Assembly: GCA_016934595.1 (NCBI GenBank) | Contig: JAFGSM010000080.1 | Coordinates: forward strand, 1,000 to 64,999 | Reading direction: 5' to 3' | Origin: a bacterium | Lineage (GTDB): Bacteria; SZUA-182; DTGQ01; JAFGSM01 | DNA length: 64,000 bases | Shown here: in pieces, positions 1-42,823 of the stretch | How positions within the stretch are numbered: the first letter of the stretch is position 1 | Layout of the letters: the number at the start of each line of letters is the position of its first letter | Notes under the pieces: model-generated | Told to the model about the DNA's origin: nothing | Seen by the model: the letters and a program-made list of their open reading frames with translations, nothing else | Database searches by the model: none | Translations under genes and position numbers: made by a program

Positions 1-560
1 AGGAATTCCTCCAGGCTTATCGAGGTTTTTTGGGCGAGTGGATGGCTCGCATTCAAAGCAAGGGCCATAACATCCTCTATAAAATCGAAATATAAAAGTT
101 GATCTTCGTTGATCTTGCTGCCTATAACGCCCAAATCAAGGCCTCCATCTATAACCTCCTGTGCTATAGACAGGGTATCACCTATGCTGGAAAAAATCTT
201 TACACACGGGTTTTCTTTGCAGAATCTTTGAATAAAGGGCAAAAGGATATATGCCCCGGGGATATTACTTGAGCCCAGTTTAATTTCTCCCTTCCTGATC
301 CCCAGTATATCATTGATTGCCAGCCTCGCCTTTTTTTCGGATTCAACCATTATCCCTGCGTGCTGTAAAAGGATTTCTCCCGCCTTTGTCAAGACAATCC
401 TTTTGCCGAGACGGTCAAACAGTTTTGTTCCCAATTCCTTTTCCAATGCAATGATCTGGCAGCTTACTGAGGGCTGGCTTAGGTGAACTGCATTGGCCGC
501 CATGGAAAAGCTCTCCATCTCTGCGATCTTTATAAAACTTCTTAATTGTTCCAATGTCAT
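1..560 (-). CDS. LysR-family transcriptional regulator (partial; runs off window start)
   Basis: My translation of the reverse complement from the ATG at 560 gives MTLEQLRSFIKIAEMESFSMAANAVHLSQPSVSCQIIALEKELGTKLFDRLGKRIVLTKAG..., a typical LysR N-terminal wHTH followed by a substrate-binding domain. No stop codon before position 1, so the six-frame track does not list it. Confidence 0.7.
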   Translation of the reverse strand, partial: MTLEQLRSFIKIAEMESFSMAANAVHLSQPSVSCQIIALEKELGTKLFDRLGKRIVLTKAGEILLQHAGIMVESEKKARLAINDILGIRKGEIKLGSSNIPGAYILLPFIQRFCKENPCVKIFSSIGDTLSIAQEVIDGGLDLGVIGSKINEDQLLYFDFIEDVMALALNASHPLAQKTSISLEEF

Positions 561-575
561 ATATTCTTATCAATG

Positions 576-1451
576 TCACTTTATATCAGCCCAGGCATTT
601 TTTGTCTTTTCAATGGCCTCAGGCAAATATTTTATGATTTCCGAAATCTGTGTGGCAGGATTGGGATTAGCCAGCTTTCCAGCCCAGCGGTTGGCTTTTG
701 AGGCAAATGAGCAGGCTTCAACAATATTCATGCCCTTGTATATGAGGGCGGCGGCTATGCCCGTAATGGTGTCGCCTGTCCCGCCAATAGCCTCCAATAC
801 CTCCACAGAGGGGTCATCTACCTTCTCAACAATGGACCCATTGCAGCACACATAGTCTGTGCATCCCTTGACACATAAATATTTTGCCGAATTATTATAC
901 TTATAAGCCCTCTCTATCAGGGCAGCGGCCTCCCCCTCCAGGTGGCATATAAAACCCCTGGTGTAGGCAGGGTGGGAAGCCTTATCGTCAGCCAAAAACG
1001 CCAGTTCTCCAAGGTCAGGTGTAAAAAGGTCGTAAAGGGAGGCTTGTCCGGCAGCTTTGGCCACATACATTGATCCTGCGTCTGCTATCAGGCAAGGGAT
1101 TGGGTCAAGCCTTTGAATGACTGCCATAAGCCTTTTGTGATATTGAATGTTCGGCATAAGGTAATGAAGGACAAGCGTCTTTACCCTGTTTTTCTGAACA
1201 AACGCCTGTATTCCCTCGTATATATTGGCTCCACTTGTTTTTTGTCCTATATCGCCTGCCATTATAACATAGGGTGGGTCCAGATTAAAATACCGGCATG
1301 CTGCTGCAGCCGCCCCCACAAGGGAGGCTGTGCCACGAGTTAAAGGCAAATTCATTGCGTTTATCCTGATAATACCCTTTTCGCCAAAGTCTGCCCTCCC
1401 TGCTATGATCTCTCCAACATTACTTGGCACTGTGCCGGCAAGAAGAAGCAT
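576..1451 (-). CDS. YjeF C-terminal / NnrD-like carbohydrate-kinase-fold protein (ADP-dependent NAD(P)H-hydrate dehydratase family)
   Basis: Motifs LIADAGSM, FTPDLGELAFL, CVKGCTDYV and AIGGTGDTITG line up with the VlDADAL / LTPHpGE / vLKGsgT / GGsGDVLtG pattern of the YjeF_C/NnrD family. It is the last gene of the YeeE-TusA-DUF3343 operon. Confidence 0.5.
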   Translation of the reverse strand: MLLLAGTVPSNVGEIIAGRADFGEKGIIRINAMNLPLTRGTASLVGAAAAACRYFNLDPPYVIMAGDIGQKTSGANIYEGIQAFVQKNRVKTLVLHYLMPNIQYHKRLMAVIQRLDPIPCLIADAGSMYVAKAAGQASLYDLFTPDLGELAFLADDKASHPAYTRGFICHLEGEAAALIERAYKYNNSAKYLCVKGCTDYVCCNGSIVEKVDDPSVEVLEAIGGTGDTITGIAAALIYKGMNIVEACSFASKANRWAGKLANPNPATQISEIIKYLPEAIEKTKNAWADIK

Positions 1452-1454
1452 AAA

Positions 1455-2003
1455 TTAGGCCTCCGCTCCGCCCAGGAGATGTCTTATCTCTTCATAGGCC
1501 ACATTTAATGTGTAAGCGCAGAGGCTAAAACCGATCTGCGCTGGCCCTTCGCATTCATTAAGGGTTTTTCCTATCATCCGGTCAGCAAGATATGGGACAT
1601 CCGGACAACCACCTCCGGATATATTGACTATCTTCAGATTCCCTTTTTCAACGGTTATCTTCATGTTTGCTGCACGCACCATAAGATAACCGCCGAAGTC
1701 TTTTACCCTGCATAATTCCAGAGGGGACGTCGTTTCGTCCGACACAGGAACGATATTGAGCGGAGGGTTCCCGGATTCTTCAAGCTCCCTTGTCATAACA
1801 GTCTGCTCAATCAGATCGAAGGCCACGACAAGGTCGCACCCTGTCCTTATATGCGGAGGAGGCGCCATCAGGCGCACCTTAAAGCCGGCCTTTTTCAGTG
1901 TCTTCTCTGCCCTTATGGCCTGGCCTGCCTCCTGAAAAACAAAAAGCCCCCGTGCCTCTTCTCCTTTAGAATCAACCTTTTTCTTTAGAATATCTTTTAG
2001 CAT
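1455..2003 (-). CDS. DUF3343 (Pfam 'putative Se/S carrier protein-like') domain protein
   Basis: The N-terminal half (FVFQEAGQAIRAEKTLKKAGFKVRLMAPPPHIRTGCDLVVAF) matches the DUF3343 fold with its conserved Cys. The C-terminal half is uncharacterised and carries a GGGC motif. Only a 3-bp gap separates it from the downstream gene. Confidence 0.5.
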   Translation of the reverse strand: MLKDILKKKVDSKGEEARGLFVFQEAGQAIRAEKTLKKAGFKVRLMAPPPHIRTGCDLVVAFDLIEQTVMTRELEESGNPPLNIVPVSDETTSPLELCRVKDFGGYLMVRAANMKITVEKGNLKIVNISGGGCPDVPYLADRMIGKTLNECEGPAQIGFSLCAYTLNVAYEEIRHLLGGAEA

Positions 2004-2126
2004 GAAAAACCCGTGCCTTCATCTTTAAAATCCTGGGTTCCGGCTTTCGCCGGAATGACAGGAAAGGTTATTTTCATCTCCCTTTGTGAATCGGAGATTC
2101 ATGGGCGTTTCAAGAAAATCTACTTT

Positions 2127-2339
2127 CTACTTTTTAAGGGTAAGGATGAATTCGTCCCCCTCCTCTTTACATTCAATCTTCCATCCTTCATGTTCAGCCA
2201 ATCTGGAGATGTTGTCCCTCGAAGTGCCTGTGTCGACAATCACCTCAAATGTCCCCCTTCCCAATTCCTTCATCTTGTTCCTTGTCAAAACAACCGGTTG
2301 CGGGCAGGACAATCCCCTTGCATCAACTTTGTTAATCAT
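2127..2339 (-). CDS. TusA-like sulfurtransferase (CPxP motif)
   Basis: A 70-aa protein with the canonical N-terminal RGLSCPQPVV motif of the TusA/SirA family. The RBS aaaggagg sits just upstream of the ATG on the minus strand. Confidence 0.8.
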   Translation of the reverse strand: MINKVDARGLSCPQPVVLTRNKMKELGRGTFEVIVDTGTSRDNISRLAEHEGWKIECKEEGDEFILTLKK

Positions 2340-2450
2340 TATGTTTCCTCCTTTTTGTGGTTCCGGCTAGAGCCGTTAATTTCTTTGTAACCCCCATGAC
2401 CTTGCAGTCACAACGAAGCATAAAGTGGTGAACTATTACAATTTTTTAAT

Positions 2451-3521
2451 TCAAGCGGTTTGCCTCATGCCAAAGCCAATGCCTAAACAAACTATAATCC
2501 CTATTATTACAGATGCAGGGCCCCATACGGACGGACCTGTGGGGGCGCTTGCCATCGCAAAATTATGTGCAAAAGCGGCTCCGGCCAGCATCCCGAGTAC
2601 AAATATGGCTGCATCTCCATCCCCCTCGCCTGACATGAACAACTGCCTTCCAGGGCACCCCCCCGCAAGCGCAAATGCAAGGCCGGCCAGCACCATGCCT
2701 CCGAAATTCCATAAATGGTTGCTATGGGCTATTGGCTGGCCTGTTATTCCAGGTTGGAACTGCCTGAAAACAAGATTTGTAATAAAAGCTCCGGCTATCA
2801 AGGCAATAACCCCGGAAATAAGATGCGTGTCGCGAATCAGTATAATATCCCTGAATGCGCCCATTGTGCAAAACCTGGTCCTCTGTGCCAGGAATCCTAT
2901 GATTATGGCAATGCTAAGGGATATAAGAACAGGGGCATATTGCGCCCCTGGACCGCTTTCACTGAAAAAAAGGCCGCCTGTAGGGAGCTTTGGCCGGAAA
3001 AGAAGGAGGAGAAGGAATGCAATCATGGTGACAGGAAACAGCAGCCCTGCGAATGTGTTTGACTTATGGTTCCGGCCCAGACTATACCCCGATTTTATAA
3101 AAAGGACGCCGATCCATACCCCAACAACAAGACCCAATATCCCTAAAATGGCATTGCCATCCCCGCCAGCGAGCCTGAGCATGGCGCGCCATGGGCATCC
3201 AAGGAAAACAAGCGACCCTGTCATGGCAAAAAAGCCCAAGATAAACCTTGCGATGGGGGAAGATCCTCCTCTGGGCTTATATTCTTTAAAAAGCAATGCG
3301 GCGATAAATGCCCCAAGCACAAAACCGATGATCTCAGGCCTCATGTATTGCACAACCGCCGCACGGTGAAAACCCAGTGCCCCTGCAATATCCCTTTCCA
3401 TACAGGCCACGCATATCCCCATATTTTTGGGGTTTCCCAGCCTTTGTAAGATGGAGGCAAAGACGCCTATGATTGATCCCACAATGACAATGCCCTTCCT
3501 GGTTGTAAAGAATTTTGACAT
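2451..3521 (-). CDS. YeeE/YedE-family membrane transporter (thiosulfate/sulfur- or selenium-compound uptake)
   Basis: A 356-aa polytopic membrane protein with two repeated halves and conserved Cys-containing motifs (CVACMERDIAGALG and ALAGGCPGRQLF) typical of YeeE/YedE. It is immediately followed by a TusA-like gene, as in the known yeeE-yeeD pairs. Confidence 0.75.
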   Translation of the reverse strand: MSKFFTTRKGIVIVGSIIGVFASILQRLGNPKNMGICVACMERDIAGALGFHRAAVVQYMRPEIIGFVLGAFIAALLFKEYKPRGGSSPIARFILGFFAMTGSLVFLGCPWRAMLRLAGGDGNAILGILGLVVGVWIGVLFIKSGYSLGRNHKSNTFAGLLFPVTMIAFLLLLLFRPKLPTGGLFFSESGPGAQYAPVLISLSIAIIIGFLAQRTRFCTMGAFRDIILIRDTHLISGVIALIAGAFITNLVFRQFQPGITGQPIAHSNHLWNFGGMVLAGLAFALAGGCPGRQLFMSGEGDGDAAIFVLGMLAGAAFAHNFAMASAPTGPSVWGPASVIIGIIVCLGIGFGMRQTA

Positions 3522-3806
3522 ACTGTCGTAACCCCCCTTTCGTTTTAGATAAACAAGGCAGATTAGTAATTATTCAATATGCTGCTAATATGGCCCATAT
3601 AGCCTCTTTAGAAATTGCAGTTGTAAACTATTATATTATTAATAAAATCAATATGTCAAATTGAAATTTTAAATAATAGCCCCCTTTTGAATCAGAAATA
3701 ACTATATTTACGAGTCCATCAATATTTCGGTATGCGTGTTTCATTATTTTATAAATAGCAACCTTCAAATTGACAGATTTCCCTTCATATAGTAAGCTTT
3801 TCTGAT

Positions 3807-5870
3807 ATGATTTATATCCAGAACATCAAAAAACATTTCGGGCACAAAACCATATTCGATAGCGCTTCAGCCCATATACCCCCTAAGACTAGAGTTGGCC
3901 TGGTGGGACCCAATGGCTCTGGGAAAACTACGCTCCTTCGGATCTTAACCGGTGAAGAGGAACTGGATGGCGGCGGTATCTTTATAAATAAAGGAGCCCG
4001 GGCCGGTTATCTCAAACAGGAGGTATGGGATAATCCAGACCGCGGCATTTTGGCAGAGACGCTGTCGGGTTTTCCTGATCTTCAAAAGATTGAACAGGGC
4101 CTGATAGAACTGGAACGGCAGATGGAGGGCAAATTTCTGCCTGACACCCTTGAAAAATATGGAGAGTTGCGTCATCTTTTTGAGATACAAGGCGGTTACG
4201 ATATAGAACATCAGGCCAAGTCATTGCTTTGCGGCATGGGTTTCCGTCCGGAGCAATTCGCTCAGCCCCTGCACCAGTTCTCAGGCGGTTGGATGATGCG
4301 CGTCTGTCTCGCTAAATTACTATTGGCCAAGCCCGATGTGCTTTTGCTGGATGAGCCAACGAACCATCTTGACCTGGAGACTATATTATGGCTTGAAAAT
4401 TTTTTGCTTGAATATCCTGGCACCATCGTGTTCACAACACACGACCAGGTATTTATGCAGAATGTGGCAGGGCGTATTCTGGAAATCAGCCGGTGCAAGT
4501 TGTTTACATTTATAGGAAGCTTCGAGGAATATGTGGAGGAAAAGGCTTCCAGGCAGGAACAGATCGAGGCCCAGTATAAAAACCAGCAGAAAAAGGTCGA
4601 ACAGCAGGAGCGTTTTATTGAGCGCTTCCGGTACAAGGCCACCAAGGCAAAGCAGGTGCAAAGCCGTATCAAAATGCTTCAGAAAAAGGAACGGGTGGAT
4701 ATGATAGAAGACACCCCGCGTGCGATGAAGATTCGCCTGCCCCAACCACCCCGGTCAGGTCAAAAGGTGGTGCATGTCTCAAATGTTACAAAAAAATACG
4801 GCGAGAAGACGGTCTATGAAGGGCTAAACCTTATCATCGAACGGGGTGAGAAGGCGGTGCTGGTTGGGCCGAACGGTGCAGGCAAATCTACACTCCTCAA
4901 GATTATAGCCGGAGTAATAGACATCCAGGCTGGAACCGTATCTTATGGCCACCAGGTCACAATGGATTACTACGCCCAGCATCAGCTCGAAACCCTGAAT
5001 CCGGATTTCAGCATACTGGAGGAATTGACGGCTGTGACACAGGACTTCACTCTTGAGAAACGCCGAAAACTATTAGGGGCATTCCTGTTCTCAGGCGAAG
5101 ATGTTTTTAAGCGCATCTCCATTTTGTCCGGCGGCGAAAAGGCACGAATCGCCCTGGTTAAAATGCTATGCCGGCCAATGAATTTCCTGGTCATGGATGA
5201 GCCTACCAATCACCTGGATATCCTTTCTCGTCAGGTACTTGAGGATGCGCTGTCAGACTATGATGGAACACTTGTTTTTATCTCCCATGACAGGGCATTT
5301 ATCAATTCCTTCGCAAACCGTGTTATCGAGATCAGGGATGGCAAACTGCACAGCTATCCAGGAAATTACGATGACTATGAATGGAAAAAAGCCCAGGAAA
5401 AACCACAAACACCTCTTGATCAAAAAATAAAAAACCGGCTGTCACCCGAATGCGTGGCCCCGGATATTCACGGCTCAAATTCTAATGAAAAGCCCATGAA
5501 TCTTAGATTCACAAAGGGGAATGAAAATATACAGAAGGGATTTTCAGATAAAAAAATCCCGGGCAAAAAAGACGGGCGTCGCGTGCGAGCCGAAAGGATA
5601 CAGGAAAAATCCAGGCGTCTAAAACCGCTTAAGGAGAAACTGGCTATTCTGGAAAAAGATATAGCAGCCCTGGAAGCAGAAAAAGAGGTAATCTCATCGG
5701 CAATATGCGACCCTAATATCATAAGCGATACTTCAGTCTATCCGCAAAAACTCAAAAGACACCGTGTCCTTGAGACAAGACTCCAAATATATTATGACGA
5801 ATGGGCAGAAACTTCCCAGCAGATAGAGGAAACCCTTTCAGAGTTTTCAGAGTTACAACCGGGTGATTAA
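3807..5870 (+). CDS. ABC-F family ATPase (EttA/Uup/YheS-like, two ABC domains) with an extended C-terminal tail
   Basis: Two Walker A motifs ([18 protein letters not shown]), two ABC signature motifs ([19 protein letters not shown]) and no TMDs. The C-terminal roughly 150 aa is a coiled-coil tail that contains an in-frame copy of the dispersed repeat (aa ...[23 protein letters not shown]...). Confidence 0.85.
5496..5560 (+). repeat. One unit of the dispersed structured repeat family, inserted in-frame in the ABC-F tail
   Basis: ATGAATCTTAGATTCACAAAGGGGAATGAAAATATACAGAAGGGATTTTCAGATAAAAAAAT matches the units at 58878, 14803 and 8911. It contains two palindromes: TGAATCTtAGATTCA and GAAAATatacagaagggATTTTC. 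Confidence 0.7.
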
Positions 5871-8990: not shown

Positions 8991-9173
8991 AAAATAGAAA
9001 TCCCGAAGTGATAACTTCGAGGAGTAAAGGTTGATATTTTAGGCTTGTTTATCTATAATTACACGCGTTAATTATCTGCTAAGATTCCTATTTAAACAGG
9101 GAGTTTCATGAAGGATGTTCGGGTGGAATTAAAGCTTAACTTAAATGACATTGGATTGCGAATTCATACGACT

Positions 9174-9246
9174 GCGCCCGTAGCTCAGGGGACAGAGCGC
9201 AGCGCTCCGGACGCTGAAGCCGAAGGTTCAAGTCCTTCCGGGCGCA
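9174..9246 (+). tRNA. tRNA-Arg (anticodon CCG)
   Basis: Hand-folded cloverleaf. Acceptor GCGCCCG/CGGGCGC, D-stem GCTC/GAGC with a G18G19 loop, anticodon stem CAGCG/CGCTG, loop CTCCGGA (U33, CCG, G37), T-stem GAAGG/CCTTC and T-loop TTCAAGT, discriminator A. No encoded CCA. The six-frame ORF 9108..9302 is an artefact over this tRNA. Confidence 0.85.
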
Positions 9247-9269
9247 TAATTATTTCCTTAATTAACAAT

Positions 9270-9391
9270 GATGGCCTCGTAAAAAGTCTAAAATGCCCTT
9301 AAAAATAAGTTTAATATTATAATTTTGATACATGTTTTGTCGATATAATCTTAGTTTTTCATCATTAAAAATACTTTTTACGAGGCCATCA
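9270..9391. mobile_element. MITE-like element: 18-bp perfect terminal inverted repeats (GATGGCCTCGTAAAAAGT / ACTTTTTACGAGGCCATC) flanked by a 6-bp direct repeat AACAAT
   Basis: Read directly: left TIR 9270-9287 is preceded by AACAAT (9264-9269); right TIR 9374-9391 is followed by AACAAT (9392-9397). The interior is AT-rich and non-coding. It lies 24 bp downstream of tRNA-Arg. Degenerate solo TIR-like copies occur at about 3697-3716 and 13683-13700. Confidence 0.6.
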
Positions 9392-9424
9392 ACAATGCCG
9401 ATAAGAAGATAGAACCTTTTCAAT

Positions 9425-11080
9425 ATGAAATTTAAGGGGGGAAATATGCATAAAAGATATCTATATAATAATAAACGCCCATGTCACCTTATATCGCCAC
9501 AAATAATGAGAATAAACAACGAGATTTATTTTAGGAACAAATATCCATGGCACTTTGGAGCCGCCACGAATCATGAAAATCGAACCTATTTTCGAGACAA
9601 ACGCTCATGCCGCTTCGCTGCGCCACGAATCATGAAAATAAACAACGATGTTTATTTTCGAGACAACAAGAATAAAAACCCTTTGTCCTCGATGTGCCTT
9701 TCTGTAATGATTGTAATGATGATGATAATATTGCCTTGTCTCATTTCTGGCCATGCTATAGCAGACGAAAACAGTGCATTCCCGTTCTATCCATCTTTAA
9801 TCATTCCGGCAGCAGACGGGGGAATAGGTCTGGATGCCTTTAAGGCCGCTATGTCCTGCAGAGGATGTCACCTTTCTACCTTCAAGGAATGGGAGGGATC
9901 AACACACTCCCTTGCCTTTAAAGACCCTGTATTTCTTTCGATGTGCAGATTAGGTTCCAAAGCAACAAACGGACAAACGGACAAATTGTGTCTTGGATGC
10001 CATACACCCATAGGGCTTATTACATCCGATATAACAACCCCTGATGATGAAACTAAGGCAAATCAAATCTCCAAAGATGGCGTTCAGTGCGATTTTTGCC
10101 ATGTCGTAAGCAATACGACCTATAACAAAGCCAAGACCGCTTCCCCCCAGAATGCGTCATTCCTTGTCCAGCCAGGGGAAATTAAATGGGGGCCGATAGA
10201 CAATTGTGAATCCACATTCCACAAATCGGAATTTTCCGAGCTTCATACCAGTTCCAAGTTTTGTGGCAACTGCCACAATATCTTCTTGACAGGCCAGGAT
10301 ATCAAGATTGTAAAGACCTACGACGAATGGGAAAAATCCGTTTACGCCCAGAAAGGTATAGAGTGCCAGGACTGCCATATGATGCCTGTTGAATTGGCAA
10401 AAATAGCGGCAGACAAACTGGAAAAACCTAAAAATTCCGGTAAGGCCGCATCCGTTGCGCCCTTGAGAGAAAATATACATGTGCACAGGTTTGTCGGCGG
10501 AGGATTCGATCTGGAAAAAGGCCCACGCGTAACTAATCAGCAGAAAGAGACGGAAAAAAGGCTAAAAAGCGCGGCAAGACTGGATATCGATGTTAAGCCC
10601 TCCCCTTCCTCAAAAGGCAGCCTGGTCTTAACGGTAACCGTACACAATGAAAGGGCGGGCCATAATCTGCCTACAGGGATCCCTGGCATAAGGCAGTTAT
10701 GGCTTGAGGTAATCATCTCAGACAAAGGCTCAAAAGAGGTGTTTCGTTCAGGCGGCCTGGATAAAGACGGAAATATCCAAAAAGACGCAAAGCGCCTTGG
10801 TGTTGCAGCCGTTGACAAATCAGGCGACCCTGTATATAAACCCTGGGAAATTGCGGCATTAAAGACAGATACAACCATCCCTCCGAAGGGAAAAGGGGGG
10901 TTCAAATTCGACGTAAGCCTTCCCGATGACATTGCGTGGCCGATGACTGCGAAAGCCATTCTTCACTACAGGGCATTCAGTCCATCATTGCTTAAGGATC
11001 TTTTGCCGGATGCCCCTCGTGAGATACCTGTCTTTGACATGGCAACATCAGAGATCGCCATACAAGGCCCTGTTCTCTGA
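9425..11080 (+). CDS. Multiheme c-type cytochrome (five CxxCH motifs), secreted
   Basis: CRGCH, CLGCH, CDFCH, CGNCH and CQDCH are present. A signal-peptide-like segment MCLSVMIVMMMIILPCLISGHAIA sits at about aa 90, which suggests the real start is near 9692. The first roughly 270 nt of the listed ORF are the tandem repeat units. Confidence 0.8.
   Translation: MKFKGGNMHKRYLYNNKRPCHLISPQIMRINNEIYFRNKYPWHFGAATNHENRTYFRDKRSCRFAAPRIMKINNDVYFRDNKNKNPLSSMCLSVMIVMMMIILPCLISGHAIADENSAFPFYPSLIIPAADGGIGLDAFKAAMSCRGCHLSTFKEWEGSTHSLAFKDPVFLSMCRLGSKATNGQTDKLCLGCHTPIGLITSDITTPDDETKANQISKDGVQCDFCHVVSNTTYNKAKTASPQNASFLVQPGEIKWGPIDNCESTFHKSEFSELHTSSKFCGNCHNIFLTGQDIKIVKTYDEWEKSVYAQKGIECQDCHMMPVELAKIAADKLEKPKNSGKAASVAPLRENIHVHRFVGGGFDLEKGPRVTNQQKETEKRLKSAARLDIDVKPSPSSKGSLVLTVTVHNERAGHNLPTGIPGIRQLWLEVIISDKGSKEVFRSGGLDKDGNIQKDAKRLGVAAVDKSGDPVYKPWEIAALKTDTTIPPKGKGGFKFDVSLPDDIAWPMTAKAILHYRAFSPSLLKDLLPDAPREIPVFDMATSEIAIQGPVL
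9473..9664 (+). repeat. Three tandem units (66, 60 and 66 bp) of the dispersed structured repeat family, immediately upstream of or inside the 5' end of the multiheme cytochrome ORF
   Basis: The three units are at 9473-9538, 9539-9598 and 9599-9664. Each contains CCACgAAtcATGAgAAT-loop-ATTTTcGAG-type hairpins (for example GAAAATAAACAacgaTGTTTATTTTC, an 11-bp perfect stem). All three are in-frame with the cytochrome ORF (…RFAAPRIMKINNDVYFRD…). Confidence 0.7.
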
Positions 11081-11086
11081 TGTATT

Positions 11087-11698
11087 TTAATCTTCCTCGT
11101 CTTCTTCGTTCAGGTCATTAAATATCTTTACCCAAAAATTCTGGATCCCCGTTAGATAGGCATCCATTCCCAGATCCACGGTAAATGCCTGAGGGTTATA
11201 ATAGACATTATAAGGATTTCCGGCATTCATATAACTGGTGGTTGTGGGAGGATAACCCCAAAACCCTGTGGCAGTGTTCATTTGGTTATTCCATGCACCC
11301 TGATCGACATAGGCATAAGGTATAGGATATCCGAATGTATCCACATCACGCCACCCATATCCGTTATAGTTGCCTGTATTATAAGAACCCAAAAAGTTCT
11401 GATTATAGCCTGCATTTACATTATAGGCCCCATTATATATGTTAAATCTGGTGTTATACGGATAATATACCCCCATAGCAGGCCCTAACATATATGGATC
11501 CGAAAATGCCTGATAACTGTTGTAATTCATATAATTGGATGGATTGCCCCAACCAATATTCATATTAGCAGTCCATGTGGGGATGTTATAATAGCCGTAA
11601 TAAGCCGATGCCTGGCCGGTCACACCCGCAGAAAATAAAACTATTATTGCAATAATAAAGATATGATACGATTTCATGTTTTTTGTGATGCCTTTCAT
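11087..11698 (-). CDS. Secreted Tyr/Asn/Gly-rich low-complexity (prion-like/amyloid-like) protein with an acidic C-terminal tail
   Basis: The N-terminal signal peptide is MKSYHIFIIAIIVLFSAGVTGQASA. The mature part is about 15% Tyr and 17% Asn with repeated YN/GY/NxY motifs, and ends in NEEDEED. It is convergent with the cytochrome gene with only a 6-bp gap. Confidence 0.5.
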   Translation of the reverse strand: MKGITKNMKSYHIFIIAIIVLFSAGVTGQASAYYGYYNIPTWTANMNIGWGNPSNYMNYNSYQAFSDPYMLGPAMGVYYPYNTRFNIYNGAYNVNAGYNQNFLGSYNTGNYNGYGWRDVDTFGYPIPYAYVDQGAWNNQMNTATGFWGYPPTTTSYMNAGNPYNVYYNPQAFTVDLGMDAYLTGIQNFWVKIFNDLNEEDEED

Positions 11699-11878
11699 TT
11701 TACTCCTCCAAATATTATTGTTATTGGCTAAAATCTCGATTTATAAGACGATAGAAAATAGAAAAAATTACTGCACCAGAATAAAAACCCAAGTAGATCG
11801 TTCAGTTATATCGATGCAATACATTTTGTTCGATCGATTCATTAACCTGGTATTTCCAATGCTATCTATCGGCAATGT

Positions 11879-12029: not shown

Positions 12030-13040
12030 ATGACACCTTGCTTTCACCCCAGGCTGGTCAATGGCCCTTTCCATGACCCTGCCTTATATATAGATTTCCT
12101 CTATCAAAACAGGGCCATCCTTTTTGATATAGGAGACATATCGGCGCTGACGACAAAACATATCCATAAAATCACGGATGTCTTTGTCACGCATACCCAC
12201 ATGGATCATTTCATAGGATTGGACTATCTGATAAGGCTATTTCTTGGCAGGGACAAGCGGCTTTCCATATACGGCCCCCCAAGGATAATCGATAATGTGG
12301 CAGGAAAGCTCTCGGCCTATACATGGAATCTGGTTGACAATTTTGAAAACAGTTTCGAGATCCATGTCTTTGAATCGCACACAGATCACATAGAAAAGGC
12401 GATTCTGAAATGCCATAACCTCTTCCAAAAGGAGATGTGCCTTGAAAAAGCGCCTTTCAAAGACAAACTCCTGGACGAAGATGAATTTAGCATCCATACG
12501 GCCTTTCTTGATCATTTTACACCATGCCTGACATTCTGTCTGAAAGAGAAGTCCCATATAAATATCAAAAAGGACGTATTGGACACACTTGGCCTGCCTT
12601 CCGGCCCGTGGCTAAACCAGTTGAAAACAGCGATAAGGCAGCAGGAGCCGGATAATTATCCGATAACGATCAAGGCCAAGAGTTCGGATGATTCTCAGGG
12701 GCAGAAGACTACCCTGGGCTGGGTCAAACAAAAAGGCCTTTTCACAATTTCACAGGGGCAAAAGATAGCCTATGTTACAGATATAGGGTACACACAGGAA
12801 AATATATCCAGGTTAACCTCTTTTGCAATGGATGCGGACTATCTGTTTTGCGAGGCCGCATTCCTTGAAGAAGACAGCCAATTAGCGAAAAAGAAATGCC
12901 ATCTTACAGCGCATCAGGCAGGGCTGATAGCCAGACAGGCAAATGCAAGGAAACTTATCCCTTTCCATTTTTCCCCAAGATATCAGGGCAGGGAAGACCT
13001 TATTTACAAAGAGGCTGAAAGGTCCTTTACTTCTTCATAA
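12030..13040 (+). CDS. MBL-fold metallo-hydrolase (RNase Z/ElaC-like)
   Basis: Contains the HxHxDH motif (VTHTHMDHFIGLDYL) and downstream His/Asp ligands (DHF..., H at TAHQAG) typical of the metallo-beta-lactamase superfamily. Confidence 0.65.
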   Translation: MTPCFHPRLVNGPFHDPALYIDFLYQNRAILFDIGDISALTTKHIHKITDVFVTHTHMDHFIGLDYLIRLFLGRDKRLSIYGPPRIIDNVAGKLSAYTWNLVDNFENSFEIHVFESHTDHIEKAILKCHNLFQKEMCLEKAPFKDKLLDEDEFSIHTAFLDHFTPCLTFCLKEKSHINIKKDVLDTLGLPSGPWLNQLKTAIRQQEPDNYPITIKAKSSDDSQGQKTTLGWVKQKGLFTISQGQKIAYVTDIGYTQENISRLTSFAMDADYLFCEAAFLEEDSQLAKKKCHLTAHQAGLIARQANARKLIPFHFSPRYQGREDLIYKEAERSFTSS

Positions 13041-13635
13041 CCCAAGCGCCATCCTCTTGCTGTATCCACCAACCGGCAGGAGTACTTTTTTGCCAGCTTT
13101 TGGAAAATATCCTTTGTATCTCTTCCATATGCTCTGGCCCTAAGTTGTTTGCCTTCAGTATCTCCTCATATAACAACTTGCGATCCTTGTTTTCATCATC
13201 AACCAGGCGCATCAGATTCGACTTTTCTTTTAATCCAAGCCCCTGCAACTCACGTGCTTCGATCAGTCCCCTGTTTGTCTCCCCTATCCTGCCTGACTCA
13301 TAAAAAGGCCTTAAGCCTGAAAACCTGTTCTTTAAAGACTCCTTTAAAGAACGGATTGCTGGCGTTGTCACCTCAATATCCATTGCAGCATACGCAGCCG
13401 TGACAAATATGGCAAAATCATTCGTCCTGTTGCGAAGCATTGTTTCCTTATCCCCGCCCCCTGAAGGGGCCTCATCTGTTCGTGTATTATCCGTTCCACC
13501 TCCCCTTACCTCACCTACGATCTCATCAGCAGCCTTCTGGACCTCTGCTGCCGGAAAATATATGTTGACAGTCACACATGCAGCCACAACAAACAAAAAC
13601 ATAACGCATAGGACAACAATCCTTTTCTCTGACAT
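13027..13635 (-). CDS. YdbL-like periplasmic protein (DUF1318)
   Basis: Signal peptide plus the conserved DDENKDRKLLYEEILKAN motif of DUF1318/YdbL. It lies directly downstream of an AsmA/YdbH-like gene, as in the E. coli ydbH-ynbE-ydbL operon (no ynbE is visible here). Confidence 0.55.
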   Translation of the reverse strand: MSEKRIVVLCVMFLFVVAACVTVNIYFPAAEVQKAADEIVGEVRGGGTDNTRTDEAPSGGGDKETMLRNRTNDFAIFVTAAYAAMDIEVTTPAIRSLKESLKNRFSGLRPFYESGRIGETNRGLIEARELQGLGLKEKSNLMRLVDDENKDRKLLYEEILKANNLGPEHMEEIQRIFSKSWQKSTPAGWWIQQEDGAWVMKK

Positions 13636-13740
13636 CTTCCAATCCCCCTTTCGATTTTTGAATCCATTATCTCTTCATTGATCGCCTCGTAAAAAGCCGA
13701 TATTACCCTTCCTGTCATTGTGAAATGAATAGACCTCCTG

Positions 13741-15192
13741 CTAATTGACCTTTACTGCCGTACCCCTGTCCTCGAAAATCCTGTTGATCCTTTCCCTCAT
13801 ATCCTTAAAGCTTATTATGTTATCAGGGTTCTGATTGACCATATCGATCCCGCGGAAAAGCCCTTTTCTTATAATAAACTCCTGGCCGTCCTCCTGAATA
13901 AGCCCCCTCAGTGAAAAGATATCGTTTCTTAGCTCGCACCTGAACCCTATTTTTGAGTATGGATAATAGGAAAAAAATCTGTTTAATCCGGAATTAAGAA
14001 CACTCTGAACACCGGAAGACCCTGTGCCGATCATGGAGAGGTTATTAATGGCATCCACGCTGATCTTCTGCCTTACCCCTTTCTGTTTAACCGATTCCAC
14101 CTCCATCAAAAACCTTGCAGGCTGACCATATTCTATCACAAAATCGGTCAACTTTCCTTTGATAACACCGCTGATCTTGCCGATGGGAACCCTTTCTGTC
14201 AGCTTATCAAGCCCTATGCCATCCCAAAAGATAGACCCGCCCAGCCTTCTCCCCTGGCTGAAGGGCATCTCAAGATAAATATCCTTGATATCTAAACCTC
14301 CTCCGAATATTTCAGCATAAAGCGAGCCTGTAAAATCGATCCTGTCATTCTTATATGTCAGATGAGGTATATCTCCATCCAATCGCCCGGATACAGGAAA
14401 ACCTGATCCCTTTGAAATCGTCATCAGATCCAATGCCTTAATGCCTATGGATGCCTGGAAAACAGCGTTTTTGGAGATTATCTCCGCGCCGCTCAGCTCC
14501 CTCAAAAAGACTTCCCCACCGAAGATATTTATATAGACAGGGTCCTTTATCTGGAAACGGTTTTGAGAAAACATGGGATGCAGCTCCAAGTCATCATAAA
14601 ATCCATTTAGCCAGGAAACCTTCTTGATACGGATGACCCCTGAACGTCCATCTGTGAATGGCCCCTGTTCACAGAATGAAGACGCTGCAAGTTCTAAAGG
14701 CAATTCTATAGTCAGTCCAGAGATGGAGATTTCACAGGCAGGTATATCTATTGATGGAAAAGATGCCTTCCATTCGCCGCTAAGCCTCCAACCGCCACTT
14801 TCATCTGAAAATCCCTTCTGGGTATTTTCATTCCCCATTGTGAATCTAAAATTCATGGGCGTTTCACCTGAAAATAGTTTTGGATTTTCATTCTCCTTTG
14901 TGCCGAATTTAGGCATGAGTGTTTCATCTATCATCGCCCTTAGTTTAAAAACAGAGCATCCCGATATATTAATCCCCTGTAAAGCAGGCGGTCCCTGTTC
15001 ATTGCCTTCCGCGATGATAAAACCGAGGAGAGCGGAATGGTTGATGCCAGACGTCTTTGTCTCTAAATCAAGAGACAATCCCTTTTGATCCATTTTTATC
15101 TGAAACCGCAGGCCCCCGATCTCTAAAATATCCAGAACCCCTTTAGACTCTAAACGCTGAAAGTTTGCAAAAAAAAACCGCTTAAATCCCAC
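13741..15192 (-). CDS. YdbH/AsmA-family protein, C-terminal fragment (same gene as 15150..16550 after a +1T correction)
   Basis: Inserting one T in the T9 run (plus-strand A9 at about 15170-15178) joins ...WDLSGFF to FANFQRLESKG... in one frame, giving about 940 aa, comparable to E. coli YdbH. It contains two in-frame repeat units (...MPKFGTKENENPKLFSGETPMNFRFTMGNENTQKGFSDE...). Confidence 0.6.
   Translation of the reverse strand: MGFKRFFFANFQRLESKGVLDILEIGGLRFQIKMDQKGLSLDLETKTSGINHSALLGFIIAEGNEQGPPALQGINISGCSVFKLRAMIDETLMPKFGTKENENPKLFSGETPMNFRFTMGNENTQKGFSDESGGWRLSGEWKASFPSIDIPACEISISGLTIELPLELAASSFCEQGPFTDGRSGVIRIKKVSWLNGFYDDLELHPMFSQNRFQIKDPVYINIFGGEVFLRELSGAEIISKNAVFQASIGIKALDLMTISKGSGFPVSGRLDGDIPHLTYKNDRIDFTGSLYAEIFGGGLDIKDIYLEMPFSQGRRLGGSIFWDGIGLDKLTERVPIGKISGVIKGKLTDFVIEYGQPARFLMEVESVKQKGVRQKISVDAINNLSMIGTGSSGVQSVLNSGLNRFFSYYPYSKIGFRCELRNDIFSLRGLIQEDGQEFIIRKGLFRGIDMVNQNPDNIISFKDMRERINRIFEDRGTAVKVN
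14803..14935 (-). repeat. Two tandem units of the dispersed structured repeat family, in-frame inside the ydbH-like gene
   Basis: The reverse complement reads ...TGAAACACTCATGCCTAAATTCGGCACAAAGGAGAATGAAAATCCAAAACTATTTTCAGGTGAAACGCCCATGAATTTTAGATTCACAATGGGGAATGAAAATACCCAGAAGGGATTTTCAGATGAAA... One unit is nearly identical to the intergenic copy at 8911-8990. Confidence 0.7.
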
Positions 15193-16550
15193 GAAACAGA
15201 GCGCCCGGACAAGTCTTTATATATTGTACCCCAAAGATATTCGCCGTTTTTAATATCTCCATGAGTTCTGAATGTAACCTTGTCATCCGTCGTCTGGGGC
15301 TGGGGATAAACCAGGTCCAGGTTAACATTCAGTTCGATCCCCTCGCCCGCCTTTGTGCCGTCATTGGAACTGAACCCTCCATCCTTTACCTTAATCTCCA
15401 GCCCCCCTTCGAATGTCCATTTCTCCTGCATCCTCATCCCTGTGAGTTGGACGCTGGCATCCCCTCTTCCCTTTACATCCCAAAGATTATTACCTTGGTC
15501 CAAAAACGGACCTATTATTTCAGTCAATCCTGTGATAAAAAAATCCCTTGTAAAAAGCGCAGCCCTGCTGGAACACCCCTCCTTAAAACAAACATCCATA
15601 TGCCCATCAATAACACCCATCTCCGGCGCTTCTGCCTTAAAACCTCTTATGCTCAAGGCCCCCCTTTGCAAATCATATACAATATCCGCATGGATATTAA
15701 TGCCTTTAAGCGCAGGGATATTACCCCCGTCGATCTGAATGCCATTTAACCCCATGTTCACGTCTGGAAGACTTATCTTCTGCGCATCGATAAAGACTCC
15801 GCAATCAAGGCGCATACCCTCTATTGATACGCCTTTTATTGTAATGCCAGAAAGGGATAAGGAAAAGTGCCCGCTGCCTGATAAAACCTGCGAAAGGGGT
15901 GCAAGATTGAGTGTCAACTCTATCTGCCCGGACGTACAGGATAAAAGCGAGGGAGGACATACCTGTAATGCCCCTTTTAAAAAGACCCTGCCCCCTGTGT
16001 CAGCGCCCATATCCCGAACCTCAACAACGGCGTCTTTCAGCTCCAAGATGCCCAGACTGTCGGAAATCTTGATGGAAAAGGCCCCGCCCTTTATATCCAT
16101 CTTCCTTATATACGGCATCTTTCTAATAATATCCTGCAAACGAGAAAAAGCCTGATTGGCATCTAAATGCCCATCACCGGAGGATCTGTCTTTTGAAGAT
16201 TTATTTTTTACAGCATCAGGCATTACATCCAATGCTATATCAGGCTTATAAAATACAAGGTCTACAATCTCGGGCCTGAAGCCGCTTCCGATCCTGCCGT
16301 CAAAGTTAACCGTCTCCACCTCTGCCCTTGCAGAGAGGCCGTCATCCCTCTTTATGGAAAGGCGTTCTATGTTCCCTTCCAATCCGGGTCTTAACGCAAA
16401 ACCTTTCGCATTCAGGGAAATACCGTATTTCAAACGCAGAACATATCCAAGGATATTGACAGGGATGGGGGTAAAGAAAAAAAGGGACACGCAAGCACAA
16501 AAAACTGCGGATAAAAAAATGGCTGTTATTACTATCTTTCTTTTATGCAT
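15150..16550 (-). CDS. YdbH/AsmA-family protein, N-terminal fragment (frameshifted; continues in 13741..15192)
   Basis: An N-terminal signal anchor is followed by long beta-rich repetitive sequence typical of AsmA-like/TamB-like lipid-transfer proteins. Its stop overlaps the next ORF at a T9 homopolymer. Confidence 0.6.
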   Translation of the reverse strand: MHKRKIVITAIFLSAVFCACVSLFFFTPIPVNILGYVLRLKYGISLNAKGFALRPGLEGNIERLSIKRDDGLSARAEVETVNFDGRIGSGFRPEIVDLVFYKPDIALDVMPDAVKNKSSKDRSSGDGHLDANQAFSRLQDIIRKMPYIRKMDIKGGAFSIKISDSLGILELKDAVVEVRDMGADTGGRVFLKGALQVCPPSLLSCTSGQIELTLNLAPLSQVLSGSGHFSLSLSGITIKGVSIEGMRLDCGVFIDAQKISLPDVNMGLNGIQIDGGNIPALKGINIHADIVYDLQRGALSIRGFKAEAPEMGVIDGHMDVCFKEGCSSRAALFTRDFFITGLTEIIGPFLDQGNNLWDVKGRGDASVQLTGMRMQEKWTFEGGLEIKVKDGGFSSNDGTKAGEGIELNVNLDLVYPQPQTTDDKVTFRTHGDIKNGEYLWGTIYKDLSGRSVSWDLSGFFLQTFSV

Positions 16551-35886: not shown

Positions 35887-36369
35887 ATGATTAAGATTCT
35901 TGGTTCTTTAAGAAAAAACGAGACAGGCTTTACCTTGATCGAGGTAATGGTTGTGATAATCATGGTGGGTATCCTTGCGGCAATAGCCGTGCCCATTTAC
36001 ACCAATTATGTATACAGGGCCAGAACCAGTGAAGCTGTCTCAACACTGGGCGCAGTCAAGACTTATGTCCTGGAAAGACGCAATGCAACAGGCCGTTGGC
36101 CTACCGTTGATGAAATTAGAGCCGAATTTAGAGGCTTTAACGAGCTTTATTACTTCAACAACTCCACAATTAGACTCATTGAATCAGGGGATCGTTTGGC
36201 TGTACGTCTTGAGGCATCGGCCAATTTTGACGCGCCAAGCTCTATTACCGAACAATGGGTACAGTTAGATATCGATTTGAATGGGAATGATGCGAATATG
36301 GGATGGAGCGGGGGGATAGTAACCAGCTATGCAAGCCATCTCAAAGGATGCACATCCCCTTTAACATAA
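35887..36369 (+). CDS. Type IV pilin / pseudopilin (prepilin N-terminal methylation domain)
   Basis: ...NETGFTLIEVMVVIIMVGILAAIAVPIYTNYV... has the prepilin peptidase cleavage site (G|F) and the conserved Glu at position +5. Confidence 0.75.
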   Translation: MIKILGSLRKNETGFTLIEVMVVIIMVGILAAIAVPIYTNYVYRARTSEAVSTLGAVKTYVLERRNATGRWPTVDEIRAEFRGFNELYYFNNSTIRLIESGDRLAVRLEASANFDAPSSITEQWVQLDIDLNGNDANMGWSGGIVTSYASHLKGCTSPLT

Positions 36370-36427
36370 GCGAGTATCTGTATTCTTAATCTAAATAATA
36401 TAACAAGATATAAAGCGTGTTAACATA

Positions 36428-36901
36428 TTGAAAATTAGAATATTTTCAGGTTTAAAAGATCAGAAGCCGTCTTATGGTTCTATATTGATCGAGGTCCTGA
36501 TCTCTATTTTATTGCTGAGTTTTTTTATAATCGGATCTGTTTATTCTTATAGTTTTGTGCACCAGAGGATTCGCCGGCAACTGCATCGAAGAGTACTTTT
36601 AAGCGCCGCGCAGGGATGGATAGAGCAGACAAGGTTTCATTTAGTTAATATTGCCAGGGATACTACCTTGGATCCAAACCAGATCATGACCTCTTCGTTT
36701 CAACGAACCCAGGAAGGTTTGCTCAAGGCAAGATTCGATAAAGAATCCCAGGATATGTTAAACCTGGAACCTGATATGGCGACTATTGATATACATTTAA
36801 GCAATTCTGAGAATAATTTTGTAAATATTTTGATAACTGCGGAACTGGACGGATCGCCAGTAATATTATATACGCAGATCAGCCCGGATATACACAGATA
36901 A
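36428..36901 (+). CDS. Minor (pseudo)pilin, PilV-like
   Basis: Atypical prepilin N-terminus ...PSYGSILIEVLISILLLSFFIIG with the Glu at position +5 relative to the putative cleavage site. Confidence 0.5.
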   Translation: MKIRIFSGLKDQKPSYGSILIEVLISILLLSFFIIGSVYSYSFVHQRIRRQLHRRVLLSAAQGWIEQTRFHLVNIARDTTLDPNQIMTSSFQRTQEGLLKARFDKESQDMLNLEPDMATIDIHLSNSENNFVNILITAELDGSPVILYTQISPDIHR

Positions 36902-36927
36902 ATCAAGAACAGGTAATAAAAAGGCCA

Positions 36928-37539
36928 TTGGTATTAAAAGCTATCCGTAAAAAAAATATACATGGATTTACCCTGATAGAGATTTTGGTTGTTGTCGGCA
37001 TCATTGGCATATTGTTCAGCGCCGGCTTTGGATATTTTTTTAGCGGAGTCTGGCAAGAGCATCGAATATCTGAACAAAAACATTACCTGCAAAGGGAAGC
37101 CAGGTTTGCCATGGATTTTATAATCAATGGAACCATGCAGGCAAATAATCAGGGGTATTTTCGTTTTGGAGGTATCATCGGTTCCCACTTTGTTGAAATC
37201 AGCAATGACCCGAACAGCCAAGGGGGTAATGTGATAACGCTGAAGGACAAAGATAATAATCTGACCGGCCGCATCATGGGTTTCCCCGCGGAAAATCCTG
37301 TGTCTTTGATATTTGATGTAGATCAGGTATCGGGCAATGGCAATGAATTTGTTATAATCCCTCATCAGGTGCAGGATGAACCAGGCGCATTTGGTGTGAC
37401 TGTGAATTTTAGCCAGGACCCAAACAATCCTTCCCTGATCGGCATTGGCATCCAGCTTGACCGGCAAACACCGCAGGGCAGAGATTTAACTGTCCGGTTG
37501 TATTCATCTGTTGCATTAAGGAATGTAGGGGGCATTTGA
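36928..37539 (+). CDS. Minor (pseudo)pilin, PilW-like
   Basis: ...NIHGFTLIEILVVVGIIGILFSAGFGYF... prepilin-type N-terminal domain. Confidence 0.6.
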   Translation: MVLKAIRKKNIHGFTLIEILVVVGIIGILFSAGFGYFFSGVWQEHRISEQKHYLQREARFAMDFIINGTMQANNQGYFRFGGIIGSHFVEISNDPNSQGGNVITLKDKDNNLTGRIMGFPAENPVSLIFDVDQVSGNGNEFVIIPHQVQDEPGAFGVTVNFSQDPNNPSLIGIGIQLDRQTPQGRDLTVRLYSSVALRNVGGI

Positions 37540-37583
37540 ATACCCTTTGAAATGTTTATTTAGTTAGATATCTAATAAAAACC

Positions 37584-39861: not shown

Positions 39862-39884
39862 AAACTTACGGGTATTAATCAAAA

Positions 39885-41842: not shown

Positions 41843-41856
41843 GGAATTAATAAAAT

Positions 41857-42822: not shown

Positions 42823-42823
42823 T

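Follow-up and report, generated by a model that had tools for sequence, protein, structure and literature searches.

The stretch of DNA analysed here (64,000 nucleotides from contig JAFGSM010000080.1 of assembly GCA_016934595.1, hereafter the window) carries on its minus strand a gene for a small, predicted secreted protein dominated by tyrosine, asparagine and glycine, which is referred to below as the Tyr-rich protein. The gene lies between a divergent RNase Z-like gene of the metallo-beta-lactamase (MBL) type and a convergent gene for a multihaem cytochrome, and its NCBI counterpart is MBN2372978.1 ('hypothetical protein JXL19_04235 [bacterium]'). Here, we describe a conserved two-block signature in front of this gene, which is new and probably represents a promoter of the type used by extracytoplasmic function (ECF) sigma factors, together with a well-defined orphan protein family whose function we infer from sequence. 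The features of the gene and its upstream region are collected in Table 1.

Table 1. Features of the Tyr-rich gene, its product and its upstream region (positions in the window; residues counted from the start of the precursor).
Feature	Position	Strand	Details and basis
Promoter-like element	11746..11772	(-)	AGTAATtTTT (-35-like block plus T-tract), 12-nt variable spacer, CGTCT (-10-like block); upstream alignment and comparison with the ECF consensus
Shine-Dalgarno site	11703..11709	(-)	GGAGGAG, 6 nt 5' of the ATG; read from the sequence
Complete coding sequence	11087..11698	(-)	203 codons, ATG start, TAA stop at 11087-11089
Predicted signal peptide, residues 1-32	11603..11698	(-)	MKGITKNMKSYHIFIIAIIVLFSAGVTGQASA; sequence; modelled as a helix by AlphaFold
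Mature Tyr/Asn/Gly/Pro-rich body, residues 33-168	11195..11602	(-)	Alignment; AlphaFold pLDDT <50 throughout; no internal repeats
C-terminal predicted amphipathic helix, residues 169-196	11111..11194	(-)	PQAFTVDLGMDAYLTGIQNFWVKIFNDL; most conserved segment; alignment and AlphaFold
Polyacidic tail	11090..11110	(-)	NEEDEED; alignment of the family

The open reading frame (ORF) of 203 amino acids (aa) reported by the initial annotation was confirmed on the minus strand with an ATG start. The window holds 78 ORFs that measure at least 100 aa, and this one has the most extreme composition of them all, with 13.3% Tyr over the whole ORF against a window median of 2.9%, and 37% Tyr, Asn and Gly combined against 13.7%. 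A GGAGG-type ribosome-binding site precedes the start codon in most of the related loci whose upstream sequence was read, and the ratio of nonsynonymous to synonymous substitution rates (dN/dS) is 0.13-0.19, as estimated by the Nei-Gojobori method from pairs with unsaturated dS only. Considering the ribosome-binding site, the approximately 20 homologues described below and these dN/dS values, the ORF is a real gene under purifying selection. The possibility of an artefact of the opposite strand was ruled out, because all ORFs on that strand are 68 aa or shorter and dN/dS is low. The gene is also a stand-alone, single-gene transcription unit, since relocated copies that have lost the cytochrome neighbour end in a strong terminator hairpin of their own.

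Upstream of the gene, two invariant blocks, AGTAATnTTT and CGTCT, are separated by 12 variable nucleotides (nt), which can equivalently be written GTAAT-N16-CGTCT, and 47 nt separate the end of CGTCT from the start codon. The element was found upstream on the same strand in all ten lineages with at least 200 nt of upstream DNA, comprising the window, the related loci L001, L007, L008, L013, L014, L016, L017 and L018, and L015, which has one extra base in the spacer. The blocks are 16 nt apart in nine lineages and 17 nt apart in L015, and the spacer sequence varies; the TTT that follows AGTAATn and the CGTCT are invariant in the nine aligned lineages, and CGTCT is found again in L015. A single copy of the strict motif is present in the 64-kb window (11746-11771, minus strand), where 0.06 would be expected, and each related locus likewise has one copy, always before the Tyr-rich gene. 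A relaxed pattern gave 11 matches in 184 kb on both strands, ten of which precede a Tyr-rich gene. Since the copies in L007 and L017 keep the element despite wholly different neighbours, it travels with the gene.

The only relaxed match outside the family (GTAAC-N17-CGTC, at position 9732 on the plus strand of L139, from the same assembly as L015, GCA_975972645.1) precedes a 39-aa ORF and an FG-GAP-repeat gene, and it may mark either a second regulon member or a chance occurrence. Viral contigs that were also scanned for the motif yielded chance matches only and were uninformative.

ECF promoters have been described as carrying 'AAC' at -35 and 'CGT/CGTC' at -10, with a T-tract by the -35 element, as in 'tGAAACnTTTt' (PMC5758882). 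The element reported here has the CGTC -10 block, the fixed spacing of about 16-17 nt around a variable spacer, and the T-tract. The promoters of the sigma-W, sigma-X, sigma-M and sigma-V regulators of Bacillus subtilis (ECF sigma factors, group 4 of the sigma-70 family) likewise have two blocks about 16 nt apart, CGTC and a T-tract; they differ in having AAC where AAT is found here and in belonging to another phylum. We consider the element to be an ECF-sigma-type promoter signature, from which the Tyr-rich gene is probably transcribed.

The product of the gene is a precursor of approximately 22 kDa. In its signal peptide, a Lys-rich n-region and a roughly 18-residue h-region precede the sequence A-S-A in front of Y33, which predicts cleavage by signal peptidase I at ASA/YY; there is no lipobox Cys. 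A small residue at both -3 and -1, followed by two aromatic residues, is found in all 21 family members. The predicted mature polypeptide (171 aa, approximately 19 kDa) begins with YYGYYN and consists of 15.8% Asn, 15.2% Tyr, 10.5% Gly and 6.4% Pro, with Tyr, Phe and Trp together accounting for 23.4%. It has no Cys, no His, one Lys and two Arg; its net charge is -10, of which -7 lies within the last 12 residues, and seven of its 13 acidic residues occupy the last ten positions. The Sec signal peptide and the Tyr/Asn/Gly-rich, nearly uncharged body with an acidic tail, both of which had been proposed in the initial annotation, are borne out by this layout and these residue counts, and the motifs that it cited (YYGYYN, NYMNYNSY, GAYNVNAGYNQN, NTGNYNGYGW and the NEEDEED end) are all present.

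Two very large databases were used to collect relatives: a single-sequence search across 5.8 billion clusters retrieved three relatives, and an exhaustive phmmer search against 1.84 billion representatives retrieved four true relatives. A profile search enlarged the family to 18 database clusters, and scans of GTDB genomes and JGI metagenomes gave one relative and two truncated relatives, respectively. In total, the bias-corrected homology search that had been suggested for this protein yielded about 20 homologues, with HMMER E-values from 1e-22 to 1e-104, all of them within one narrow orphan family. No match was found in Pfam or NCBIfam at E<=1 for the Tyr-rich protein and three relatives, and the family profile had no match at E<=10 among PDB chains; together with the NCBI designation as a hypothetical protein, this upholds the earlier statement that no described family could be recognised. 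The sole taxonomically labelled member belongs to 'Desulfobacteraceae bacterium' CP070700.1, an assembly that was treated in one paper as a candidate for a Desulfatiglandales tree, and on the basis of this label and candidacy the source clade is probably Desulfobacterota. One relative comes from mangrove or mudflat sediment. The Tyr-rich protein belongs to a tiny orphan family confined to a narrow group of uncultured sediment bacteria.

The alignment of the family comprises 21 sequences with identities down to 37% and is nearly gapless, with only a few short indels. Seventeen columns are invariant and 23 are nearly invariant, and most of them hold Pro, Gly, Tyr, Trp or Phe; by residue, 9 of 11 Pro, 10 of 18 Gly, 12 of 26 Tyr and 3 of 6 Trp are conserved. 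Conserved blocks in the body include IPTW, (S/N)PYxxGPAMGVYYPYNTxFNxY, GYNxNxxGFYN, GYPxPY, AWxNQ and GFxGxPP. The strongest block of all is the C-terminus (Y-x-P-x-A-F-T-x-D-L-G-x-x-A-Y-x-x-G-I-x-N-F-W-x-x-x-F-x-x-L-N-E-E-(D/E)n), in which P169, T173, D175, G177, G184, N187, F188 and W189 are invariant, the predicted helix has a hydrophobic moment of 0.48, and the last ten residues hold four to seven Asp or Glu in every member. Across the family, the mature parts measure 153-171 aa and contain 20-25% aromatic residues, 10-16% Asn, 10-14% Gly, 5-8% Pro, one to six Lys plus Arg, and no Cys. The Tyr-rich protein diverges (45-58% identity) much like the neighbouring cytochrome (48-56%), compared with 62-68% for the RNase Z-like protein. 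In one natural variant of 138 aa (P0005), both ends are retained and 63 residues in the middle are missing.

AlphaFold2 returned a mean predicted local distance difference test (pLDDT) score of 34 when 7 sequences were supplied and 41 when 21 were supplied. Even in the latter case, residues 28-173 remained below 50, and the helix at 169-201 reached 62-66. In these models, the C-terminal helix appears to be the sole confidently placed element, and the rest has no confident globular fold.

The prion-like and amyloid character suggested by the initial annotation was assessed in several ways. Q/N-rich prion-like domains, by the criterion of Michelitsch and Weissman, contain at least 30 Gln plus Asn per 80 residues. 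The Tyr-rich protein reaches a maximum of 19 against that threshold of 30, and Gln plus Asn make up 19% of its mature part. In the PAPA scheme, a prion candidate has a score above 0.05 with a FoldIndex below 0. A PAPA-like score, computed with a simplified form of the double averaging and to be taken as a lead rather than a test, has its maximum of 0.24 near residues 75-115, where Tyr, Phe, Val, Ile and Met raise it. The FoldIndex is -0.03 overall (borderline disordered) and negative in 62 of 131 windows of 41 residues, with a grand average of hydropathy (GRAVY) of -0.70. Many AGGRESCAN-type aggregation hot spots were also found, and these likewise offer leads only. Among the prion measures, only the PAPA-like score gave a positive lead.

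Internal repeats were absent, with self-alignment at Z <=3 and an hhalign probability of 0.1% between the N-terminal and C-terminal halves. Conservation of composition alone was rejected, given the invariant (17) and nearly invariant (23) columns in an alignment of 21 sequences that reach down to 37% identity. The label of a prion-like, low-complexity protein is not supported in view of the nearly gapless alignment, the position-wise conservation, the cytochrome-like divergence, the Gln plus Asn count and the absence of repeats. A loose prion-like domain conserved in composition only is thus disfavoured, and the features would suit a defined assembly core or, equally, a small domain with a new fold.

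Known amyloid and surface systems were compared in turn. Curli subunits are characterised by tandem imperfect repeats of about 19-23 aa with the pattern Ser-X5-Gln-X-Gly-X-Gly-Asn-X-Ala-X3-Gln and by accompanying genes for a nucleator (csgB) and for outer-membrane secretion (csgEFG), and the Fap system by a fapABCDEF operon in which FapC has three conserved repeats plus linkers. No Curlin_rpt repeat ladder was found (zero Pfam matches at E<=1 in four family members, and no repeats), and no CsgG-, CsgF- or CsgE-like gene is present among the called neighbours in 12 lineages. The Tyr-rich gene differs from the Fap layout in being monocistronic, without repeats and without a Pfam or NCBIfam match. 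A C-terminal sorting signal of the PEP-CTERM, GlyGly-CTERM or LPXTG type, in which a signature motif precedes a hydrophobic transmembrane segment and a terminal basic cluster, was not found either, as the C-terminus consists of the amphipathic helix and the Asp/Glu run and has no transmembrane segment and no basic cluster.

Considering the promoter, the anatomy and the conservation together, the reading that we tentatively prefer, and which we regard as somewhat short of probable, is that of an envelope protein that is induced by stress and associates with itself, its acidic tail serving to adjust assembly or to bind cations. Since the window encodes a PilQ-type secretin (42824-44371), the organism is diderm. 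The precursor is predicted to be exported by Sec and cleaved by signal peptidase I, and an ECF sigma factor would activate the gene within a regulon for extracytoplasmic or envelope stress or for remodelling. The mature protein would act in the envelope, in the periplasm or at the surface, as a structural or matrix component, with the position-conserved pattern of Tyr, Phe, Trp, Pro and Asn-Gly driving a beta-rich or condensate-like assembly. The amphipathic helix and the polyacidic tail would govern how soluble the protein is, or would attach to cations, mineral or a partner. During export the tail would maintain solubility, and afterwards it might interact with cations, with mineral surfaces or with a basic partner. 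The chemistry that supports this proposal is assembly-prone: 23% aromatic residues, a GRAVY of -0.70, no confident fold and a universal acidic tail.

Several observations weigh against this proposal. The -35 block, AGTAAT, has AAT with an invariant T in place of the canonical AAC, although it is near TGTAAC and TGAAAC. No gene for an ECF sigma factor or anti-sigma factor was found in the window (small ORFs included) or in the fetched loci, and ECF sigma factors are usually autoregulated from their own target motif. In addition, a TAnAAn hexamer resembling the -10 element of sigma-70 promoters follows the CGTCT block in most loci; a housekeeping sigma-70 promoter with an unusual upstream site is nevertheless the weaker reading of the element, because its invariant bases differ from the sigma-70 hexamers. 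Secretion, nucleator and chaperone genes are likewise absent alongside the Tyr-rich gene in the window and the fetched loci. The failure of AlphaFold to fold the body may merely reflect the shallow alignment, whose effective number of sequences (Neff) is about 2.3, and the comparison with amelogenin made below is an analogy only, without homology. Lastly, a small domain with an undescribed fold would account equally well for the position-wise conservation, the near-gapless alignment and the absence of repeats.

Such a domain would be a compact periplasmic unit with a new, mainly beta fold built on Tyr, Pro and Asn-Gly turns, and it would serve as a binding or adaptor protein for polysaccharide, peptidoglycan or an envelope protein. 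We regard this possibility as doubtful, and as nearly as likely as a self-assembling envelope protein. It agrees with the concentration of conserved columns on Pro, Gly, Tyr and Trp, the scarcity of indels, the low dN/dS, a divergence equal to that of the enzyme-like cytochrome next door, and a Gln plus Asn content that is not prion-like. Carbohydrate binders typically have aromatic-rich surfaces, with which the aromatic-rich composition is compatible. The low pLDDT throughout the body and the borderline disordered charge-hydropathy balance speak against a folded domain, however, and a composition of 23% aromatic and approximately 6% charged residues would be unusual for a soluble globule. The P0005 variant, which keeps the ends without the 63 residues between them, also speaks against it.

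Further readings draw on the genes next door. The usual order in the related loci is an AAA ATPase gene, the RNase Z-like MBL gene (divergent), the Tyr-rich gene and the cytochrome gene (convergent), and the neighbours over 12 lineages include RNase Z-like MBL, cytochrome, AAA ATPase, OmpA-like, PIN/VapB and other genes. In the window, the cytochrome ORF ends at 11080, leaving the 6-bp tail-to-tail gap to the stop of the Tyr-rich gene that had been noted before. The cytochrome is adjacent in eight of the 12 lineages with known downstream DNA (the window, L011, L012, L001, L013, L014, L016 and L018), with a gap of 6-7 bp in five lineages and of 16 or 22 bp in two more. It is not adjacent in the other four (L007, L008, L015 and L017): its place is taken in L007 by a convergent homologue of vanadium bromoperoxidase (1qi9, E 1.4e-70), in L008 by a terminator and then non-coding DNA, and in L017 by PIN/VapB genes. 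GCA_975972645.1 has both genes, but on separate contigs: its closest orthologue of the cytochrome (55% identity) is found among queuosine genes.

The cytochrome itself has five CxxCH motifs, and its closest solved relative is the pentahaem cytochrome c552 (5ze8), whose N-terminal haem domain matches it with E 1.5e-7 and whose C-terminal domain matches as well, together with that of 9wt8. The likeness to 5ze8 and to the multihaem selenoprotein MccSep is weak and concerns the neighbour, not the Tyr-rich protein. Against the ExtKL model, the cytochrome scored 53 bits with a cut-off of 250. At least 939 clusters belong to its family, in Thermodesulfobacteriota, Geothermincolia, Pseudomonadota and Methanoperedens, where no Tyr-rich partner occurs; this breadth is about 50 times that of the Tyr-rich family (approximately 20 clusters). 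A 43%-identical homologue (L140, 5634-10251) lies in a row of genes for a Fur-family regulator, the cytochrome, a flavodiiron protein, a flavodoxin-like protein and a nitroreductase, which hints at a role of the pentahaem family in oxidative or nitrosative stress rather than in extracellular electron transfer. The earlier description of an extracellular multihaem cytochrome stands as regards the haems, and its extracellular part finds no support in these comparisons.

It is unlikely that the Tyr-rich protein partners this cytochrome as an extracellular matrix, scaffold or nanowire-associated component, as the initial annotation had envisaged. The retention of the convergent pair in two-thirds of the lineages at mostly short gaps, and the high aromatic content of the Tyr-rich protein, would suit a partnership. 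The genes are not co-transcribed, however, because they converge, and the promoter motif is found before the Tyr-rich gene only. Moreover, the adjacency is lost in a third of the lineages and the two genes are split between contigs in one assembly. The far wider cytochrome family, which manages without a Tyr-rich partner and whose more distant homologue sits in the Fur, flavodiiron and nitroreductase row, and the relationship to a cytochrome that is not an outer-surface conduit also stand against it. Since the whole block of AAA ATPase, RNase Z-like, Tyr-rich and cytochrome genes is syntenic, the adjacency may simply be inherited; the cytochrome next door is most probably a mere syntenic neighbour whose synteny was inherited within one clade. 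A functional link between the two proteins is possible, yet weak and unsupported.

Some further details of the cytochrome gene and its surroundings were noted. A hairpin at 11045-11083 with a 10-bp stem (CATCAGAGA…TCTCTGATG) lies within the last cytochrome codons, directly after the Tyr-rich stop. On the strand of the cytochrome gene, the next feature is a run rich in U, and the 101-nt fold has a z-score of -2.7. A simple terminator scan found none, and the idea of a conserved terminator shared by both genes was rejected, as the hairpin is not kept in the other loci with tight junctions. Between a tRNA-Arg(CCG) gene (9173-9247) and the cytochrome gene, the region 9250-9700 contains a 68-nt direct repeat in two copies that are 75% identical (9473-9540 and 9599-9666), a 19-nt unit present three times, and a perfect 19-nt inverted repeat (9269-9287 and 9373-9391). 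The cytochrome ORF measures 551 aa (544 in NCBI), compared with 459-480 aa in its orthologues, and because it reads through the direct repeats at 9473-9666, it is probably annotated too long at the N-terminus, with the true start Met at 9689.

Less probable again is the proposal that the Tyr-rich protein is a substrate cross-linked or halogenated by secreted redox enzymes encoded next door, giving a hardened envelope layer. Plants and animals have wall proteins rich in Tyr and Gly that are cross-linked by peroxidases, and the mature protein has 15% Tyr and no Cys; its convergent neighbour is mostly a haem protein and, in L007, the bromoperoxidase homologue. On the other side, the haloperoxidase occurs in that lineage only, the cytochrome has no known or predicted peroxidase activity, the hosts are anaerobes in which peroxide is scarce, and the adjacency is missing in L008, L015 and L017. 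A still more far-reaching combination, which we consider quite improbable, would be a protective or adhesive envelope layer of sediment Desulfobacterota in which the ECF-induced, self-assembling Tyr-rich protein is cross-linked or halogenated by neighbouring redox enzymes while its tail binds metal or mineral. Such a layer, formed with the cytochrome in most lineages and with the bromoperoxidase in L007, would be a bacterial counterpart to hardened Tyr-rich or amelogenin-type matrices. A small outer-membrane beta-barrel, which the Tyr/Asn/Gly-rich composition and a mature length of approximately 170 aa (suited to eight strands) might suggest, is very improbable, given acidic tails in place of an aromatic beta-signal in 21 of 21 members (the last residue being Asp or Glu, or Lys in three), 6-8% Pro, a mean beta moment at 170 degrees of 0.226 that equals the shuffled value (0.211 +/- 0.024) and so shows no barrel-type alternation, no barrel in the AlphaFold models, and no outer-membrane-protein match in Pfam.

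Other observations concern the related loci and the remainder of the window. In L007 (7161-8429 and 10762-11961), from a mudflat metagenome-assembled genome, genes for two secreted proteins are located about 1.5-3 kb upstream of the family member, on the far side of a gene for an OmpA-like lipoprotein, and the bromoperoxidase homologue converges on the family member. Each of the two proteins is rich in Tyr, Gly, Pro and Phe at the N-terminus and in Thr, Pro and Val in its body, and the locus may be a cluster of unusual surface proteins. In L017, a 1408-aa secreted protein with beta-propeller and HYR repeats (65-4291, minus strand) is divergent from the family member and ends in an aromatic/Gln/Pro-rich low-complexity tail (…QPLWQGGSYQPFWPSLIP…FPIWY). 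In the window, the sequence TGGTATTTCCAATGCT (11848-11863, plus strand), read by eye, follows the GG-N10-GC pattern that sigma-54 -24/-12 elements show; the RNase Z-like gene (12030-13040) starts 167 nt downstream of it. The region 13027-16550 on the minus strand encodes a DUF1318 protein (13027-13635) followed by two large ORFs (13741-15192 and 15150-16550) that have no Pfam or NCBIfam match; in the related loci, the RNase Z-like gene is flanked instead by HTH_17 and AAA ATPase genes. A type IV pilus or MSHA-like cluster (35887-47356, plus strand) encodes pilin-like proteins with N-terminal methylation motifs, PilN, the PilQ-type secretin, and a PilB/GspE ATPase with an MshE-type N-terminus that binds cyclic di-GMP.

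If the preferred reading of a self-associating envelope protein is true, the Tyr-rich protein would represent a new bacterial envelope or matrix family without homology to others, built on aromatic/Asn/Gly chemistry and equipped with an acidic control tail, and it would lengthen the short list of self-assembling secreted bacterial proteins. The gene and its promoter would also serve as markers for an envelope-stress regulon in uncultured relatives of sulfate reducers. The conserved promoter makes this regulon computable from complete genomes such as CP070700.1, and the protein, being small and free of Cys, is simple to produce and assay.

Among known systems, prion-like domains of the FUS type resemble the Tyr-rich protein in their aromatic 'stickers' spaced by Gly and Asn, low net charge, lack of a confident predicted fold and, as a lead only, positive composition-based PAPA-like score, but they differ from it in that its Gln plus Asn count is low, its positions rather than its composition alone are conserved, and it is exported instead of being cytoplasmic or nuclear. 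Curli CsgA and Pseudomonas FapC resemble it in being small, Sec-exported, Asn/Gly-rich proteins with aromatic residues, few charges, no Cys and position-specific conservation; the Tyr-rich protein, in contrast, has neither repeats nor Curlin_rpt, no csgBDEFG- or fapABDEF-like genes nearby, far more Tyr and Pro, and an acidic tail. The nearest architectural analogue is amelogenin, the enamel matrix protein of vertebrates, which is secreted, measures approximately 175 aa and has a Tyr-rich N-terminus, a low-charge body and a charged tail that delays assembly; owing to this tail, amyloid-like nanoribbons form after a longer lag, and the tail also takes part in lateral contacts and in contacts with mineral (PMC12983448). 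Both proteins carry a signal peptide, measure about 170-175 aa when mature, are rich in Tyr towards the N-terminus and have a Pro-rich, low-charge body with most of the charge in a short hydrophilic C-terminal tail, whereas the Tyr-rich protein is bacterial and not homologous to amelogenin, is rich in Asn and Gly rather than in Pro, Gln and His, and has a predicted amphipathic helix before its tail.

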